Below, piece by piece: positions 17,903 to 52,967 of a DNA stretch of 64,000 nt. The translations under genes were made by a program, and so were the position numbers. The notes beneath the pieces were generated by a model that saw only the letters and a list, made by a program, of their open reading frames with translations, was not told the DNA's origin and did not search any database. Origin of the DNA: Escherichia coli (GTDB lineage Bacteria; Pseudomonadota; Gammaproteobacteria; Enterobacterales; Enterobacteriaceae); the NCBI RefSeq assembly GCF_003018255.1, contig NZ_CP027440.1; one strand, written 5' to 3'. How positions within the stretch are numbered: the stretch's first letter is position 1; each line of letters starts with the position of its first letter.

Positions 17903-18364
17903 GACAAGCTCCTGCTTAAGGAATAGCTATTCGACGCCAGAAATAATGCAGGCGTAACGACAAAATGCAAACGAAAGGTGCGGCATAGAGTGCCAGAAAG
18001 ACAGGCGTTAAAAGGCCTGATGCTGAAATGACGTCGGTGACGATCCATACTGCGGGCTACTGCCCTATACTCCATGGTTGTTAAACGGGAGTTAAACATA
18101 TCAGAGACGCCTCTGATTTGGCAAAGATTTACCTTCCTTTGCAAACGAATGTGACAAGGATATTTTACCTTTCGAAATTTCTGCTAATCGAAAGTTAAAT
18201 TACGGATCTTCATCACATAAAATAATTTTTTCGATATCTAAAATAAATCGCGAAACGCAGGGGTTTTTGGTTGTAGCCCTTATCTGAATCGATTCGATTG
18301 TGGACGACGATTCAAAAATACATCTGGCACGTTGAGGTGTTAACGATAATAAAGGAGGTAGCAA

Positions 18365-26592: not shown

Positions 26593-27966
26593 ATGCCAAA
26601 AGTTCAGGCCGACGGCCTGCCATTGCCCCAGCGATACGGTGCGATATTAACCATTGTGATTGGTATTTCGATGGCTGTCCTTGACGGCGCAATCGCCAAC
26701 GTCGCCCTGCCAACAATCGCCACGGACCTTCATGCCACGCCAGCCAGTTCCATCTGGGTAGTGAACGCCTATCAAATCGCCATTGTCATCTCCCTGCTCT
26801 CGTTTTCGTTTCTGGGCGATATGTTTGGCTATCGACGTATTTATAAATGCGGTCTGGTCGTTTTTCTGTTGTCTTCACTGTTCTGCGCCCTTTCTGATTC
26901 GCTGCAAATGCTCACCCTTGCGCGTGTCATACAAGGTTTCGGCGGTGCAGCGTTGATGAGCGTTAATACCGCACTTATCCGCCTGATCTATCCACAACGT
27001 TTTCTGGGTAGAGGGATGGGCATAAACTCGTTTATTGTTGCCGTCTCTTCTGCTGCCGGGCCGACAATTGCTGCAGCAATCCTCTCCATCGCATCCTGGA
27101 AATGGTTATTTTTAATCAACGTACCGTTAGGTATTATCGCCCTGCTTCTGGCGATGCGTTTTCTGCCACCCAATGGTTCTCGCGCCAGTAAACCCCGTTT
27201 CGACCTGCCCAGCGCCGTGATGAACGCGTTAACCTTCGGCCTGCTTATCACTGCGTTGAGTGGTTTCGCTCAGGGGCAATCGCTGACGTTAATTGCTGCG
27301 GAACTGGTGGTAATGGTTGTTGTTGGTATTTTCTTTATTCGCCGCCAGCTTTCTCTTCCCGTACCGCTGCTACCGGTGGATTTACTGCGTATCCCGCTGT
27401 TTTCACTTTCTATTTGCACATCTGTTTGCTCTTTCTGCGCACAAATGCTGGCAATGGTTTCCCTGCCCTTTTACCTGCAAACCGTGCTCGGGCGTAGTGA
27501 AGTCGAAACAGGCTTACTTCTGACACCGTGGCCGTTAGCAACGATGGTGATGGCTCCGCTGGCAGGCTATTTGATTGAACGCGTACATGCAGGACTGCTG
27601 GGTGCTTTAGGGTTGTTCATCATGGCTGCGGGGCTTTTTTCCCTGGTTCTGCTGCCCGCGTCACCTGCGGATATCAATATTATCTGGCCGATGATCTTAT
27701 GTGGCGCTGGATTTGGCTTATTCCAGTCACCCAATAACCACACCATTATAACCTCCGCTCCGCGCGAACGTAGCGGTGGGGCCAGTGGCATGTTAGGGAC
27801 GGCTCGTCTACTGGGTCAGAGTAGTGGCGCGGCGCTGGTGGCGCTGATGCTAAATCAGTTTGGTGATAATGGTACGCACGTCTCGCTGATGGCTGCGGCT
27901 ATTCTGGCAGTAATTGCTGCCTGTGTCAGTGGTTTACGTATCACTCAGCCACGAGCCTGGGCATAA
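26593..27966 (+). CDS. yebQ: MFS (DHA2-type) transporter YebQ, 457 aa
   Basis: Internal ATG at 26593 of ORF 26482..27966; 14-TM-like MFS translation. Confidence 0.9.
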   Translation: MPKVQADGLPLPQRYGAILTIVIGISMAVLDGAIANVALPTIATDLHATPASSIWVVNAYQIAIVISLLSFSFLGDMFGYRRIYKCGLVVFLLSSLFCALSDSLQMLTLARVIQGFGGAALMSVNTALIRLIYPQRFLGRGMGINSFIVAVSSAAGPTIAAAILSIASWKWLFLINVPLGIIALLLAMRFLPPNGSRASKPRFDLPSAVMNALTFGLLITALSGFAQGQSLTLIAAELVVMVVVGIFFIRRQLSLPVPLLPVDLLRIPLFSLSICTSVCSFCAQMLAMVSLPFYLQTVLGRSEVETGLLLTPWPLATMVMAPLAGYLIERVHAGLLGALGLFIMAAGLFSLVLLPASPADINIIWPMILCGAGFGLFQSPNNHTIITSAPRERSGGASGMLGTARLLGQSSGAALVALMLNQFGDNGTHVSLMAAAILAVIAACVSGLRITQPRAWA

Positions 27967-27997
27967 AAAAAGCGCGTCGATCAGGACGCGCTTTTTA
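27965..27997. terminator. Bidirectional intrinsic terminator between convergent yebQ and htpX
   Basis: aaaaaa-agcgcgtc-gatcag-gacgcgct-ttttt. Confidence 0.75.
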
Positions 27998-28011
27998 GTA
28001 TTTACTTCATA

Positions 28012-28893
28012 TTACTTCAGGTATTCACCCGTACGCAGAGCTTCAATACGTTTATCCAGCGGCGGGTGAGTCATGAACAACTCACTGAGCGATTTCGACT
28101 TACCGTTAATGCAGAAAGCCATCATGCTGGTTGCTTCTTGCGGTTCATAGCTGGTTTTCAGGCGCTGCAATGCAGCAATCATTTTCTCGCGACCAACCAG
28201 TTTTGCCGAACCGGCATCAGCGTGGAATTCACGATGACGCGAGAACCACATGGTGATAATGCTCGCCAGAATACCAAACACCAGTTCCAGAACCGTTGCA
28301 ACCGCAAAGTAGATCAGCGGGTTGCCGTTGCTCTCTTCACCTTCATCACGATTTCCGCCCATAAAACCCGCGGCAAGCTGCGCCAGAATTCGGGAAATAA
28401 AGATAACGAAGGTGTTCACCACGCCCTGAATCAGCGTCATGGTGACCATATCACCATTGGCGATGTGGCTGATTTCGTGAGCAATTACCGCCTCGGCTTC
28501 ATCCGGGCTCATGTTCTGCAGCAAACCGGTGCTGACAGCAACCAGAGAGGCATCACGGCGCGCACCGGTTGCAAAAGCGTTGATGTCCGGCGCATGGTAG
28601 ATAGCCACTTGCGGCATAGCGATCCCCGCCTGACGAGCCTGGGTTGCTACAGTATTGACCAGCCAACGTTCCCTTTCGTTACGCGGTTGCTCGATCACTT
28701 CCCCGCCAACAGATCGTAATGCCATCCATTTGGACATCAGAAGCGAAACGAAGGAACCACCAAAACCGAACAGCAAGGCCATGATCATCAGCCCCTGAAC
28801 GCTGCTCGACTGTATCCCTGTCAGGCTCAGTACCAGCCCGAAAACGACCATTACGGCCAGGTTCGTTAGCAGGAAGAGCGCGATTCGCATCAT
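28012..28893 (-). CDS. htpX: Membrane zinc metalloprotease HtpX, 293 aa
   Basis: ORF 28012..28893 minus; HEISH zinc motif present. Confidence 0.95.
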
Positions 28894-29048
28894 AATTTTC
28901 TTTTTACCTCAGTTTAACAAAACGCAATATGCGATACCCACATCGTATGGGTTACGCGACTATTTTCAAGTCTGGATAGTGCGTAAGTCACCAGAAAGAC
29001 ACAACTTTACATTTTGTAGCATCTGATTTACGGCATCTTGCCGCTGTT

Positions 29049-29079
29049 AAAAAATCAGGCACAATTTCTTGTGCCTGAT
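29049..29079 (-). terminator. prc intrinsic terminator
   Basis: Minus-strand stem tcaggcacaa / ttgtgcctga followed by uuuuuu. Confidence 0.7.
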
Positions 29080-29084
29080 TGATA

Positions 29085-31133
29085 TTACTTGACGGGAGCG
29101 GGTTGTTCCGCGGGTCTGGCTTTTTCAAGCTTCGCCAGATCGAGTGCGATATTCACCGTCTCATCCAGATAAGGATCCGGCTCCTGGTAATCTTTCGGTA
29201 GATCATCCAGTTTCTTCAACTCCGGTTTACCTTCGCGCTTAAAGCGTTCGTTCAAACGCGCCAGACGCGTCGCATCATCTTCATTATTCTCTTTCTCACG
29301 CACAGCGTAATTCAGAGAAACGATATTGCGCTTGTCCTTCATAGCGTTGAAGCGCGCGATATCCTTCATGATGTTCTGGAACTCTGGATCTTTCGCGATA
29401 CGCGCATTATGTTCCTTCAGCAGCTCCGGTCCAAAGGCCGTCAAATCTCCCGATTTCACATAGGTCGCGGCATCGATGCTATCCCACGGCAGCGCGTTAT
29501 CTTCGAATTTCTCACCGGTTTCCGTTTCTTCATTACCCGTCGGCATGATGATGTCTGGCGTTACGCCTTTACGTTGCGTACTGCCGCCGTTAACGCGATA
29601 GAATTTCTGGATCGTGTACTGCACAGAACCCAGCGCTGGCCATTCAGGACGTAACATCTGATCGTAGATACGGTTCAATGAACGGTATTGCTGAACGGTG
29701 CCTTTACCAAACGTCGGTTCACCCACAACCAGCGCACGACCGTAATCCTGCATTGCCGCGGCAAAGATTTCTGAAGCCGAAGCACTGAAGCGGTCAACCA
29801 GCACCACCAGCGGGCCTTTATAGAAAACCTGCCCATCGGTATCGCTGTCTTCACGAACTTTACCGTTGTTATCACGGACCTGAACAATCGGACCGGATGG
29901 AATGAACAGACCGGAGAGCGATACCGCTTCGGTCAACGCCCCACCGCCATTGCTACGCAGGTCGATGATGACACTGCTGACATTCTGTTTTTCCAGTTTC
30001 TGCAACTGCACTTTGACATCGTCTGTCAAACCCACATAGAAACCTGGAATATCCAGAACGCCGACTTTCTCTTTACCGACGGTCTTCACCGACATTTTAA
30101 CCGCACGGTCTTCGAGGCGAATACGTTCACGGGTCAACGTTACAGTACGGGTCTTGGTCCCTTTACCAGCAGGTAAAATTTCCAGACGAACTTTACTGCC
30201 CTTCGGCCCTTTAATTAAGGCAACCACATCATCAAGACGCCAGCCAATCACGTCAACCATCGGCTTGCCTGTTTGACCAACACCGACAATTTTGTCACCA
30301 ACGCTGATAGCTTTACTCTTCGCTGCCGGACCACCTGCCACCATCGAATTGATAACGGTGTAGTCATCATCCATTTGCAGAACTGCGCCAATACCTTCCA
30401 GCGACAAACTCATTTCAGTGTTGAACTGTTCGGTATTACGCGGGGAAAGATAGTTGGTATGCGGGTCGATTTCACGCGCAAACGCCGTCATTGCCAGCGA
30501 GAAAACATCTTCGCTGTTGGTTTGCGCCAGACGACGAATGGCAAATTTGTAGCGGCGAGTCAGGGTTTCACGAATTTCTTTATCCGTTTTTCCTGCCAGC
30601 TTCAGGCTTAACTCGTCGAATTTGACTTTACTGTCCCACAGCGCGTTCAACTCAGCCTCGTTTTTCGGCCAGGGCGCTTTGCTGCGGTCAAGGTTATAAG
30701 TGTCGTTGCCGGTGAAATCCATCGGCTTTTCCAGTACCGACAAAGCGTACTGGTAACGTTCAAAACGACGCTTTTGCGCCAGATTGTAGAGATCGTAGAA
30801 AACGTCGAGTTTGCCTGAACGCAGTTCATCGCCTAACTCGGTTTTCTTTTTCGCGAACTGTTCAACATCGCTTGCCAGCAGCACGTTGTGGCTGTAATCG
30901 AGCAGATTCAGATAGCGGTCAAAGATTTTGGCCGAAAATGCCTGATCGAGGTCGAACTGGCGATAATGAGAACGGGTGAAGCGCGACGTTACGCGCTCAC
31001 TCACCGTCGCATGCTGCGTCTCTTCCTTTAATACCGGAATTTGATCAGCACGCGTGATATCTTCTACAGCGAAGGTCTGGCCTGCTATTGCAAGCAGGCC
31101 AGCTAACGCGGTAAGCCTAAAAAACATGTTCAT
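29085..31133 (-). CDS. prc: Tail-specific periplasmic protease Prc (Tsp), 682 aa
   Basis: Internal ATG (MNMFFRLTALAGLLAIAG signal peptide) of ORF 29085..31181; PDZ and S41 peptidase motifs. Confidence 0.93.
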   Translation of the reverse strand: MNMFFRLTALAGLLAIAGQTFAVEDITRADQIPVLKEETQHATVSERVTSRFTRSHYRQFDLDQAFSAKIFDRYLNLLDYSHNVLLASDVEQFAKKKTELGDELRSGKLDVFYDLYNLAQKRRFERYQYALSVLEKPMDFTGNDTYNLDRSKAPWPKNEAELNALWDSKVKFDELSLKLAGKTDKEIRETLTRRYKFAIRRLAQTNSEDVFSLAMTAFAREIDPHTNYLSPRNTEQFNTEMSLSLEGIGAVLQMDDDYTVINSMVAGGPAAKSKAISVGDKIVGVGQTGKPMVDVIGWRLDDVVALIKGPKGSKVRLEILPAGKGTKTRTVTLTRERIRLEDRAVKMSVKTVGKEKVGVLDIPGFYVGLTDDVKVQLQKLEKQNVSSVIIDLRSNGGGALTEAVSLSGLFIPSGPIVQVRDNNGKVREDSDTDGQVFYKGPLVVLVDRFSASASEIFAAAMQDYGRALVVGEPTFGKGTVQQYRSLNRIYDQMLRPEWPALGSVQYTIQKFYRVNGGSTQRKGVTPDIIMPTGNEETETGEKFEDNALPWDSIDAATYVKSGDLTAFGPELLKEHNARIAKDPEFQNIMKDIARFNAMKDKRNIVSLNYAVREKENNEDDATRLARLNERFKREGKPELKKLDDLPKDYQEPDPYLDETVNIALDLAKLEKARPAEQPAPVK

Positions 31134-31152
31134 GCCTGGCCCGGCCTCCGTT

Positions 31153-31851
31153 TCAGAACACCAGGTGTTCTGCGCGCACAATCAAAGACATACCCGAATT
31201 CAGCTGGACGCGGACGCCGTCTTTGGTGATTTCTAATACGGTGGCATCCATCGCGTTTTGACCCGCTTTCACCTTCAGGGCTTGTCCGACAGTCAGAGCT
31301 GAAATGTCAGAAACCGGGGTGTGCTGTTCTTCGCGAGGTGCTTTTACTGTTTTTGGCGCTTTCTCTACCGGCTTTTGCGCACGAGGTTTACGTTCAGCGC
31401 CTTCTTTGCGGCGTGGCGTGGTCGGACGTGGCTTGCGTTCACGGCGCGGTGCGTCTTCTTTCTCACCAGCAGCTGCGGCAGCTTCGCGTTTTTTCGCTTG
31501 CTGCTCAGCACGCTGTGCCTGAACACGCGCTTTCGCTTCTTCAAGCTGCTTGCGAGCATGCTCTACATGTTGCTCGTCCAGCTCACCGCATGGGTTGCCG
31601 TCAAGATCGACACGCGTTGCGCCGGGTTTAACACCGTAAAGGTAACGCCAGCTCGAAGTGTAGAGACGTAAAGCGGATCGCAATTGCGTTTTGCTCAGGT
31701 TCATTTCCCCGGCAACACGATCGACCAAATCCTGAAAAATACCGATTTTCAGCGGACGCGCTTCACCTTCCGCACTGAAACAGTGGGGAAAACGTTCGGC
31801 CAGAAACGCGATTACTTCTTTACTGCTATTCAACTTAGGTTGATTTTCCAT
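31153..31851 (-). CDS. proQ: RNA chaperone ProQ, 232 aa
   Basis: ORF 31153..31851 minus; FinO-like N-terminal domain, basic Ala/Arg/Lys-rich linker, Tudor-like C-terminus. Confidence 0.95.
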
Positions 31852-31947
31852 GAAATTTCCTGATTACAACGGACGTAGCCAACAAGCGCAGGCATGAACA
31901 GGCGTCATTATAATGACGCTATCAGTAAATGCTACGTTATCCGTTGA

Positions 31948-32445
31948 TTATCCTGCGACGCTCGCAAAGAATTTTTTGTAATCCGTCGTTGCAAGCACCT
32001 TTTCAAGCTGTGCCACAAGCTGACGTAAGCCTTGCTCGTCCTCGTCTGTAAAGCGACCGAAGACGGTACTATCGATGTCGAGAACACCAATAATCTGATT
32101 TTTCACCACCAGCGGCAGAACAATTTCAGAATTACTCGTCGCATCACAGGCAATATGCCCGTCAAACGCATGAACATCCTCGATACGCTGCACTTGATTG
32201 CGGGCAACCGCAGTGCCGCACACGCCGCGCCCGACGGGTATCCGGACACAGGCAATTTTGCCCTGAAATGGTCCGAGCACCAGTGTATCGTCCTCAAGCA
32301 AATAAAAACCTGCCCAGTTTACGTCAGTGAGACGCTCATATAACAACGCACTGGTGTTCGCAAGCGTTGCCAGAAAACTGGTTTCTCCTGCCATCAGCGC
32401 GTTAAAGTCGCGATTTAAATCCGCGTAAAATTCTGTTTTGTTCAT
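31948..32445 (-). CDS. msrC: Free methionine-(R)-sulfoxide reductase MsrC (YebR), GAF domain, 165 aa
   Basis: Internal ATG (MNKTEFYADL) of ORF 31948..32499. Confidence 0.88.
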   Translation of the reverse strand: MNKTEFYADLNRDFNALMAGETSFLATLANTSALLYERLTDVNWAGFYLLEDDTLVLGPFQGKIACVRIPVGRGVCGTAVARNQVQRIEDVHAFDGHIACDATSNSEIVLPLVVKNQIIGVLDIDSTVFGRFTDEDEQGLRQLVAQLEKVLATTDYKKFFASVAG

Positions 32446-32574
32446 TATATAATCACTTGGTTGTCTTACCAGGAACTGCCAGCCTATTAAAATAAGCATT
32501 AAATGCGTTAATGCTCAAGATCATTCCCATCATGGGTTAAGATTAATGTTAATTCTTATTACATTTGGCACGTC

Positions 32575-41654: not shown

Positions 41655-41755
41655 AACTTATACAGAGTTACACTTTCTTACATAACGCCTGCTAAATTAT
41701 GAGTATTTTCTAAACCGCACCCATAATTTGCAGTCATTTTGAAAAGGAAGTCATT

Positions 41756-46023: not shown

Positions 46024-46287
46024 ATTTGCTCCTCAATAACCATTTTTAGTGCCTGTAGCATAGCGGATGAGGATGTCAGAAAATGTATATTGAGACAAAA
46101 GATGCGCAAATAAGCGGGGCGGTAGGCCGTTATTCAAAGAAATTCGCGCCAGGTAAGGTGTTCACTGTATATAAGGTGATAAGGGTATTTTAGGTGAAAG
46201 TAGTTTGACGTTTTGAGTGGAACTGTTTGATGCTGATTGCCCGGTTCGACGCTGCTGCGTCTTCTCAGGACTACGATTGTGTTGCGT

Positions 46288-52630: not shown

Positions 52631-52967
52631 GTCATTCTCCTTAAGTTAACTATCCCGGTACTTAAGCCAGGGTATACTTGTAATTTTCTTACGGTGCACT
52701 GTACTGCTTTTACGAGCTTGCGAAAACTGTAAACGCTTATCCACCCGTGCGATTACGGTAAAAGCGCGCAAAGTGCGGCAAAACTGATAAAAAAATCATC
52801 GTTTTCCATTGGGTAAAAATCTGACACTGATCATGTTATGAAAAAAAATAACAACTTTTTTATCTGCTTTTGTCATTAACACAGCACACAGGCGTAATAT
52901 CTGACAAAACTGCATTTCGATTTCTTTCAGAGCGGAAATCGTCATTACCCGTGAGTCTCTTTACATC

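Follow-up and report, generated by a model that had tools for sequence, protein, structure and literature searches.

The prc-htpX spacer of Escherichia coli: a predicted intrinsic terminator, a dual-type promoter and a conserved CpxR-like box

The htpX gene of E. coli follows prc on the same strand, which raises the question of whether its transcription starts anew between the two genes and, if so, through which part of the intervening DNA CpxR may act on it. The heat-shock and Cpx status of htpX was established in primary papers. Both the membership of htpX in the heat-shock and Cpx regulons (PMC9600279; sigma-32 ChIP-chip re-analysis) and the layout of a terminator followed by a promoter were already known, and the CpxR dependence is a published one: htpX rises in cpxA24 (25-fold), when cpxA is deleted (18-fold) and when NlpE is overproduced (38-fold), and it falls to 0.6 where cpxR is deleted and pnlpE is present (PMC9600279, Table 1). 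It is published as Cpx-dependent in Salmonella too. The importance of the present analysis beyond annotation is small, as htpX, a classic heat-shock gene, is also among the most strongly Cpx-induced ones, and the layout is routine. The sequence-only reading of this DNA is supported in part: its outline was right, and we add the location of the promoter and a conserved, half-consensus CpxR-like box.

The spacer and the prc terminator

The window, that is, the whole stretch of 64,000 nucleotides analysed here, comes from the E. coli chromosome and is collinear with that of K-12 MG1655; the window coordinate equals the NC_000913.3 coordinate minus 1,883,683. Of 5426 complete E. coli genomes, 5424 were matched by a 601-bp probe over the spacer, with an identity of at least 99% in 5422 of them; the genes annotated at these matches are prc and htpX. 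The genes and the predicted terminator are as follows.

29085-31133, minus strand: prc (open reading frame list; MG1655 annotation at the same coordinates)
29085-29087, minus strand: prc stop codon TAA (open reading frame list, sequence)
29053-29080, minus strand: predicted prc terminator stem-loop AAUCAGGCACAA-GAAA-UUGUGCCUGAUU, with a 12-bp stem and a GAAA loop (fold and conservation)
29047-29052, minus strand: U-run of the terminator, UUUUUU counting the stem end (sequence; T-run kept in the alignment)
28891-28893, minus strand: htpX start codon (open reading frame list, MG1655 annotation)
28012-28893, minus strand: htpX (open reading frame list and MG1655 annotation)

The spacer (28894-29084) is exactly 191 bp long and both flanking genes are on the minus strand, as had been claimed, and the described anatomy, with prc terminator and htpX promoter on one strand and the former directly 5' of the latter, is correct. 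Read along the minus strand, the order is intrinsic terminator, CpxR-like region, promoter and a leader of about 41 nt. For phylogenetic footprinting we sampled 80 htpX loci from reference genomes, with a close alignment of 16 Enterobacteriaceae. The prc gene is upstream of htpX in most Enterobacterales loci and is not upstream of it in the Vibrio, Photobacterium, Gilliamella, Haemophilus and Aeromonas loci.

The terminator begins 4 nt past the prc stop codon, and UUUUAA follows UUGUGCCUGAUU. Its fold of -22 kcal/mol compares with a shuffle mean of -9.5 (z = -4.9), and 0 of 200 shuffles were as stable. The hairpin had previously been placed at 29049-29079; its existence holds, and its coordinates are corrected to a stem at 29053-29080 with the U-run extending to 29047. 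A simple consensus scan missed the hairpin on the minus strand and reported it on the plus strand, since two T residues of the T-run are taken up by the longest stem; when the 9-bp GC core stem is considered, the minus-strand tail is AUUUUUUAA. The U-run lies directly 3' of the stem on the prc strand, where the minus strand reads ...UUGUGCCUGAUUUUUUAA. Both hairpin and T-run are kept across the 16 aligned Enterobacteriaceae, with compensatory changes at the base of the stem in Enterobacter sp. R1 (CGGGCAC..GTGCCCG) and RIT691 (GAGGCAC..GTGCCTC), and in one genome another stem occupies this position. The GC-rich 12-bp stem, the GAAA tetraloop, the U-run and the compensatory changes are all shared with the Rho-independent terminators of Enterobacteria, from which this one differs in nothing unusual; an A-run 5' of the prc stem pairs with part of the U-run. 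Fold and conservation thus present the hairpin as an ordinary and convincing candidate for the intrinsic terminator of proQ-prc.

An Rfam scan of 27500-32500 (E-value of 1 or less) gave no match inside the spacer. Just 3' of htpX, at 27962-28032 on the minus strand, it gave sub-threshold matches to STnc420, STnc40 and the Atu_C9 3' end, which most likely represent the htpX terminator hairpin. An open reading frame of 46 aa with a TTG start (28988-29128, minus strand) was dropped, being without support and overlapping the prc 3' end in another frame. In strain IAL7254 the promoter match ends at about 28974, where a gene for an 'integrase core domain' is annotated, and strain 405 matches on the prc side alone, from 29104; these breaks suggest insertions of mobile elements or deletions in or near the spacer in rare isolates.

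The htpX promoter and its leader

The following elements lie between the CpxR-like region and the htpX start codon.

28964-28970, minus strand: -35 element CTTGAAA, common to the sigma-32-type and sigma-70-type readings (consensus match, conservation)
28942-28952, minus strand: -10 region, in which aCCCATaC of the sigma-32 type (28952-28945) overlaps TACGAT of the sigma-70 type (28947-28942)
28934-28935, minus strand: putative transcription start (TSS distance in PMC5438342 and TACGAT geometry)
28894-28933, minus strand: htpX 5' leader, with a CGCA/UGCG hairpin (28933-28923) and the Shine-Dalgarno sequence GAGG (28910-28907)

The sequence-only reading had not placed a sigma-32 promoter; a motif scan now locates a candidate at 28970-28945. 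CTTGAAA is the exact sigma-32 -35 consensus and is invariant in the alignments. The published sigma-32 consensus is given as CTTGAAA-(11-15)-CCCCATnT in one source and as CTTGAAA-13/15-CCCCAT in another, so that the 11-nt spacer found here in front of aCCCATaC equals the lower limit of the first range and falls short of the second. Occupancy by sigma-32 is taken from the literature: in the ChIP-chip re-analysis, htpX is a previously reported target that was re-detected at position 1910677 with a signal of 1.6. The pattern CTTGAAA-N(11-15)-CCCAT has a single match in the 64 kb, both strands counted (28970-28947, minus strand), where 0.04 are expected. The older K-12 numbering is presumably 1975 lower at the htpX locus, so that position 1910677 would fall at about 28969 of the window, on the -35 element.

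The same -35 element also heads a sigma-70-type promoter, TTGAAA-16-TACGAT, which agrees with the consensus at 9 of 12 positions (one such site against 0.5 expected in a 600-bp scan). In PMC5438342 the centre of the OmpR peak P12 is placed 86 bp upstream of the htpX start ('distance to TSS -86'), and therefore the start would be at about 28934 and the leader about 41 nt long. A start at about 28934 fits TACGAT as the -10 hexamer, and we infer the exact start site on this basis. The htpX promoter resembles the RpoH (sigma-32) heat-shock promoters in its exact -35 element, its CCCAT core and its published in vivo ChIP signal. In contrast to them, the first C of its -10 element is replaced by A, its spacer is at the short extreme, and the overlapping sigma-70-type TACGAT suits the start derived from PMC5438342 better. 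A single CTTGAAA may thus serve both aCCCATaC, for heat shock, and the overlapping TACGAT.

Both the -35 and the -10 elements are invariant, whereas the intervening spacer varies in sequence with its register fixed at 19 bp. CCC.TACGAT is invariant in Enterobacteriaceae, and A2 and T6 of the sigma-70-type -10 element are retained across Enterobacterales. Within E. coli, the 87 nt of promoter and leader are identical in 5386 of 5423 genomes and differ in 37, and 1053 of the 5423 carry differences in the 66 nt that precede the promoter. E. coli SCPM-O-B-8794 carries G for C at 28951 (minus strand), inside the CCCAT core. A sigma-E reading of GGTGACTT, inspected by eye, was dropped for its poor -10 element and its non-conserved spacer.

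The leader is almost invariant in Enterobacteriaceae. GAGG, 13 nt before the htpX AUG, is its sole conserved Shine-Dalgarno-like element and is invariant in the 22 aligned genera; the interval from GAGG to AUG (28894-28910, minus strand) is A/U-rich, and a distance of about 12-13 nt is kept in most genera. In some genera the CGCA/UGCG hairpin is found again in other sequence. It is not supported as a conserved structure of the RNA: its three core pairs vary in 0 of the 20 sequences that form them, and its covariation, which shuffles match, is not significant. In several minimum-energy folds the 5' end of the leader pairs with the start-codon region; the whole leader folds no better than its shuffles (z = -0.24), and an RNA thermometer in which UCGCAU pairs with AUGCGA at the start codon was dropped for this lack of statistical support.

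CpxR-like boxes and their conservation

Upstream of the promoter, motif scans and the footprint single out four elements.

29027-29041, minus strand: distal CpxR-like box GCAAG-N5-GTAAA, GCAAGATGCCGTAAA, centred at about -100 (matrix score 10.8)
28996-29010, minus strand: proximal CpxR-like box GTAAA-GTTGT-GTCTT, GTAAAGTTGTGTCTT, centred at about -69 (matrix score 8.0)
28999-29011, minus strand: conserved proximal core TGTAAAGTTnTGT, 13 nt, essentially invariant in about 50 Enterobacterales species
28983-28995, minus strand: conserved extension TCTGGTGACTTAC, nearly invariant in Enterobacteriaceae, with ACTTA moderately conserved across the order

GTAAA occurs three times on the htpX sense strand of the spacer (29031, 29010 and 28907) and zero times on the antisense strand. 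About 0.29 are expected (Poisson P of about 0.003), and 103 of 20,000 shuffles reach three; the excess is modest (P of about 0.003-0.005). The sequence-only reading had noticed minus-strand GTAAA pentamers lacking the N5 spacing, and the two at 29031-29027 and 29010-29006 indeed have 16 nt between them, which puts their starts 21 bp apart. No perfect GTAAA-N5-GTAAA box is present in the spacer, the N5 pairs being all degenerate, with two mismatches in GCAAG/GTAAA and three in GTAAA/GTCTT. Across the window, GTAAA-N5-GTAAA with up to two mismatches is not enriched (68 found, 54 +/- 8 expected).

We also scanned the whole window, about 128,000 positions, with a position matrix built from 41 known CpxR sites (PMC9600279, Table S1), which themselves score 13.7 at the median, 10.2 at the lower quartile and 1.9 at the minimum; htpX is absent from this list. 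The distal box ranks 24th among the window positions, the proximal box scores below the lower quartile of the known sites, and the third-best match in the spacer is GCTACAAAATGTAAA (29020-29006, score 7.2). By chance, scores of 10.8 and 8.0 would be expected about 0.07 and 0.2 times in DNA of the size of the spacer. The formal scan finds two matches at N5 spacing, so that the CpxR call is not refuted by a lack of any; neither score is significant alone. Many accepted CpxR sites in the list of PMC9600279 are equally degenerate. Like the CpxR boxes of cpxP, degP, spy and yccA, those of htpX are tandem repeats at N5 in sense orientation, no more than about 100 bp before the start, and htpX is a published, strongly CpxR-dependent gene. 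The htpX boxes differ from the known ones in that each has a single perfect half-site, the second half-site being T-rich, and in that the spacer bases within TGTAAAGTTnTGT are as conserved as the half-site bases.

Conservation separates the two boxes. In the 16 Enterobacteriaceae the terminator, a 30-bp block (TGTAAAGTTGTGTCTTTCTGGTGACTTAC), the -35 and -10 elements and nearly the entire leader are conserved, whereas variation is seen in the promoter spacer and between the two GTAAA pentamers. TGTAAAGT is found within 260 nt of the start codon in 54 Enterobacterales loci, the source window counted, which span Escherichia, Yersinia, Serratia, Dickeya, Edwardsiella, Photorhabdus, Xenorhabdus, Providencia and Arsenophonus. 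The TGTAAAGTTnTGT core carries close to 2 bits per position over its 12 specified positions, and the neighbouring columns are almost without information. In nearly all loci that have it, its position relative to CTTGAA is fixed at exactly 41 bp upstream; CTTGAA is itself 19 bp upstream of CCCATACGAT or of a variant. In Pectobacterium, Dickeya, Brenneria and Edwardsiella prc is not upstream, yet the module of box and promoter stays with htpX. Across the order, just GT is retained in the second half-site of the proximal box, followed by T-rich DNA, and over 52 loci the median of the matrix scores there is 7.9. CTTAC in TCTGGTGACTTAC is an inverted GTAAG half-site (28983-28987).

In the distal box, by comparison, the downstream pentamer drifts among Enterobacteriaceae (GTAAA, GTAAG, GTCAG, GTCAA). 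The box is polymorphic within E. coli, its first base (29041) being A for G in K-12 MG1655. Outside the family its position is not conserved: a second sense site (score of at least 6, within 70 bp upstream) is present in 17 of 52 loci, against about 10% by chance, but its offsets are scattered at 10, 17, 22 and 31 bp, and support for a positionally conserved second box is weak.

It is conservation, not motif statistics, that is decisive for reading the proximal box as a probable regulatory site. A strict consensus scan misses this half-consensus box, which phylogenetic footprinting readily detects, and rules on motif spacing would accordingly under-call real sites. GTAAA-N5-GTCTT near -69, probably the functional CpxR box of htpX, offers a precise target for mutagenesis.

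Occupancy of the conserved box and rival readings

The full model, in which the terminator is followed by a dual-type promoter that CpxR activates through GTAAA-N5-GTCTT near -69, is in our judgement probably correct. Two genes on one strand would then be linked by a compact junction of the 'stop, then regulated restart' kind: transcription of proQ-prc would stop at a strong intrinsic terminator, and htpX would be transcribed from a promoter of its own. CpxR would most likely bind the tandem of one perfect and one degenerate half-site and, from about -69, activate htpX as an upstream activator of the class I type; in Escherichia, the looser second site near -100 may help. We infer the contact of CpxR at the proximal box and likewise the holoenzyme that it would help. 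A search of the accessible literature for a CpxR footprint or gel shift on htpX found none, and text searches for the sequence of the box or for 'htpX promoter' returned nothing relevant.

As occupant of the box we rank CpxR first and cross-binding by the OmpR family second. The latter is brought up by a published ChIP-exo signal and by one further element on the opposite strand.

29006-29022, plus strand (opposite htpX): OmpR-motif-like TTTACATTTTGTAGCAT, matching 14 of the 17 positions of GTTACATTTTGTTACAT, the OmpR motif as quoted in PMC5438342, and lying inside peak P12

The deeply conserved box could serve mainly OmpR or an OmpR-family relative such as RstA as a repressor of htpX, with CpxR acting elsewhere or indirectly. 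Peak P12 corresponds to 28994-29046 of the window and covers both CpxR-like boxes, and htpX is about 3.8-fold higher in an ompR knock-out (PMC5438342). The region shares with OmpR sites its tandem 10-bp repeats of a TGTAA-type unit, and at yobB the CpxR-matrix matches at 41657-41681 coincide with OmpR peak P13 (yobB-exoX, about 41659-41711; PMC5438342), so that CpxR-like and OmpR-like motifs overlap there. However, P12 is weak (S/N 1.89, the second lowest of 25), the match is on the opposite strand, and only its half overlapping GTAAA is conserved, the remainder (GTAGCAT) not being conserved beyond Escherichia. Moreover, spy and yebE, which are Cpx regulon genes, are likewise up in the ompR mutant (PMC5438342), and therefore the effect of ompR on htpX may be indirect, as would fit an indirect activation of Cpx; the effect of Cpx on htpX is also much larger. 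We regard this explanation as improbable. Another tentative reading, which we think doubtful although somewhat less so, takes TGTAAAGTTnTGT as a composite site dedicated to the activation of the dual-sigma core promoter by CpxR, with OmpR-family relatives as competitors; if it were true, a single core promoter would integrate cytoplasmic (heat) and envelope stress. The inverted GTAAG at 28983-28987 and the conserved spacer bases hint, on this reading, at a binding geometry unlike that of a GTAAA-N5-GTAAA dimer site.

Two further explanations do without a regulatory box, and both appear very unlikely to us. The GTAAA pentamers could be a product of chance in an AT-rich spacer, with the Cpx control of htpX bypassing them; the relaxed consensus is indeed not enriched in the window, chance would yield the two box scores about 0.07 and 0.2 times in such a spacer, and the distal box is polymorphic. 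This is hard to reconcile with a proximal core that about 50 species share essentially unchanged, with its distance from the -35 element fixed and with uninformative neighbours, or with the strand bias of the three pentamers. Alternatively, htpX could be expressed largely by read-through from proQ-prc, the spacer having little independent regulatory role, as the shared strand, the short distance and the order of prc and htpX kept in most Enterobacterales might suggest. Against this stand the strong and conserved terminator, the conserved, dedicated promoter downstream of it and the module of box and promoter that travels with htpX in the four genera in which prc is not adjacent. Activation by CpxR through the proximal box remains the reading that we prefer.

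Elsewhere in the window, the second-best match of the matrix lies upstream of yoaL-yoaE and served as a positive control: three tandem half-sites, GCAAA-N5-GTAAA-N5-GCCAA (18118-18142, minus strand; scores 14.6 and 12.0), are found about 70-95 bp upstream of yoaL-yoaE, and the title of PMC6952189 reports yoaE as CpxR-regulated in Salmonella. The best match, GTAAA-N5-GCAAA-N5-GCAAA (52758-52782, plus strand; score 15.3), presumably lies in the divergent intergenic region of zwf and yebK, if the collinearity with MG1655 persists. The matches at 41657-41681 (minus strand), between holE and yobB, score 13.9 and 11.0. The published CpxR site of yebE, GTATATCGAGACAAA, was found upstream of yebE with one difference (GTATATTGAGACAAA; 46085-46099, plus strand), and a match of 13.3, GTAATATGAAGTAAA, overlaps the htpX stop codon.
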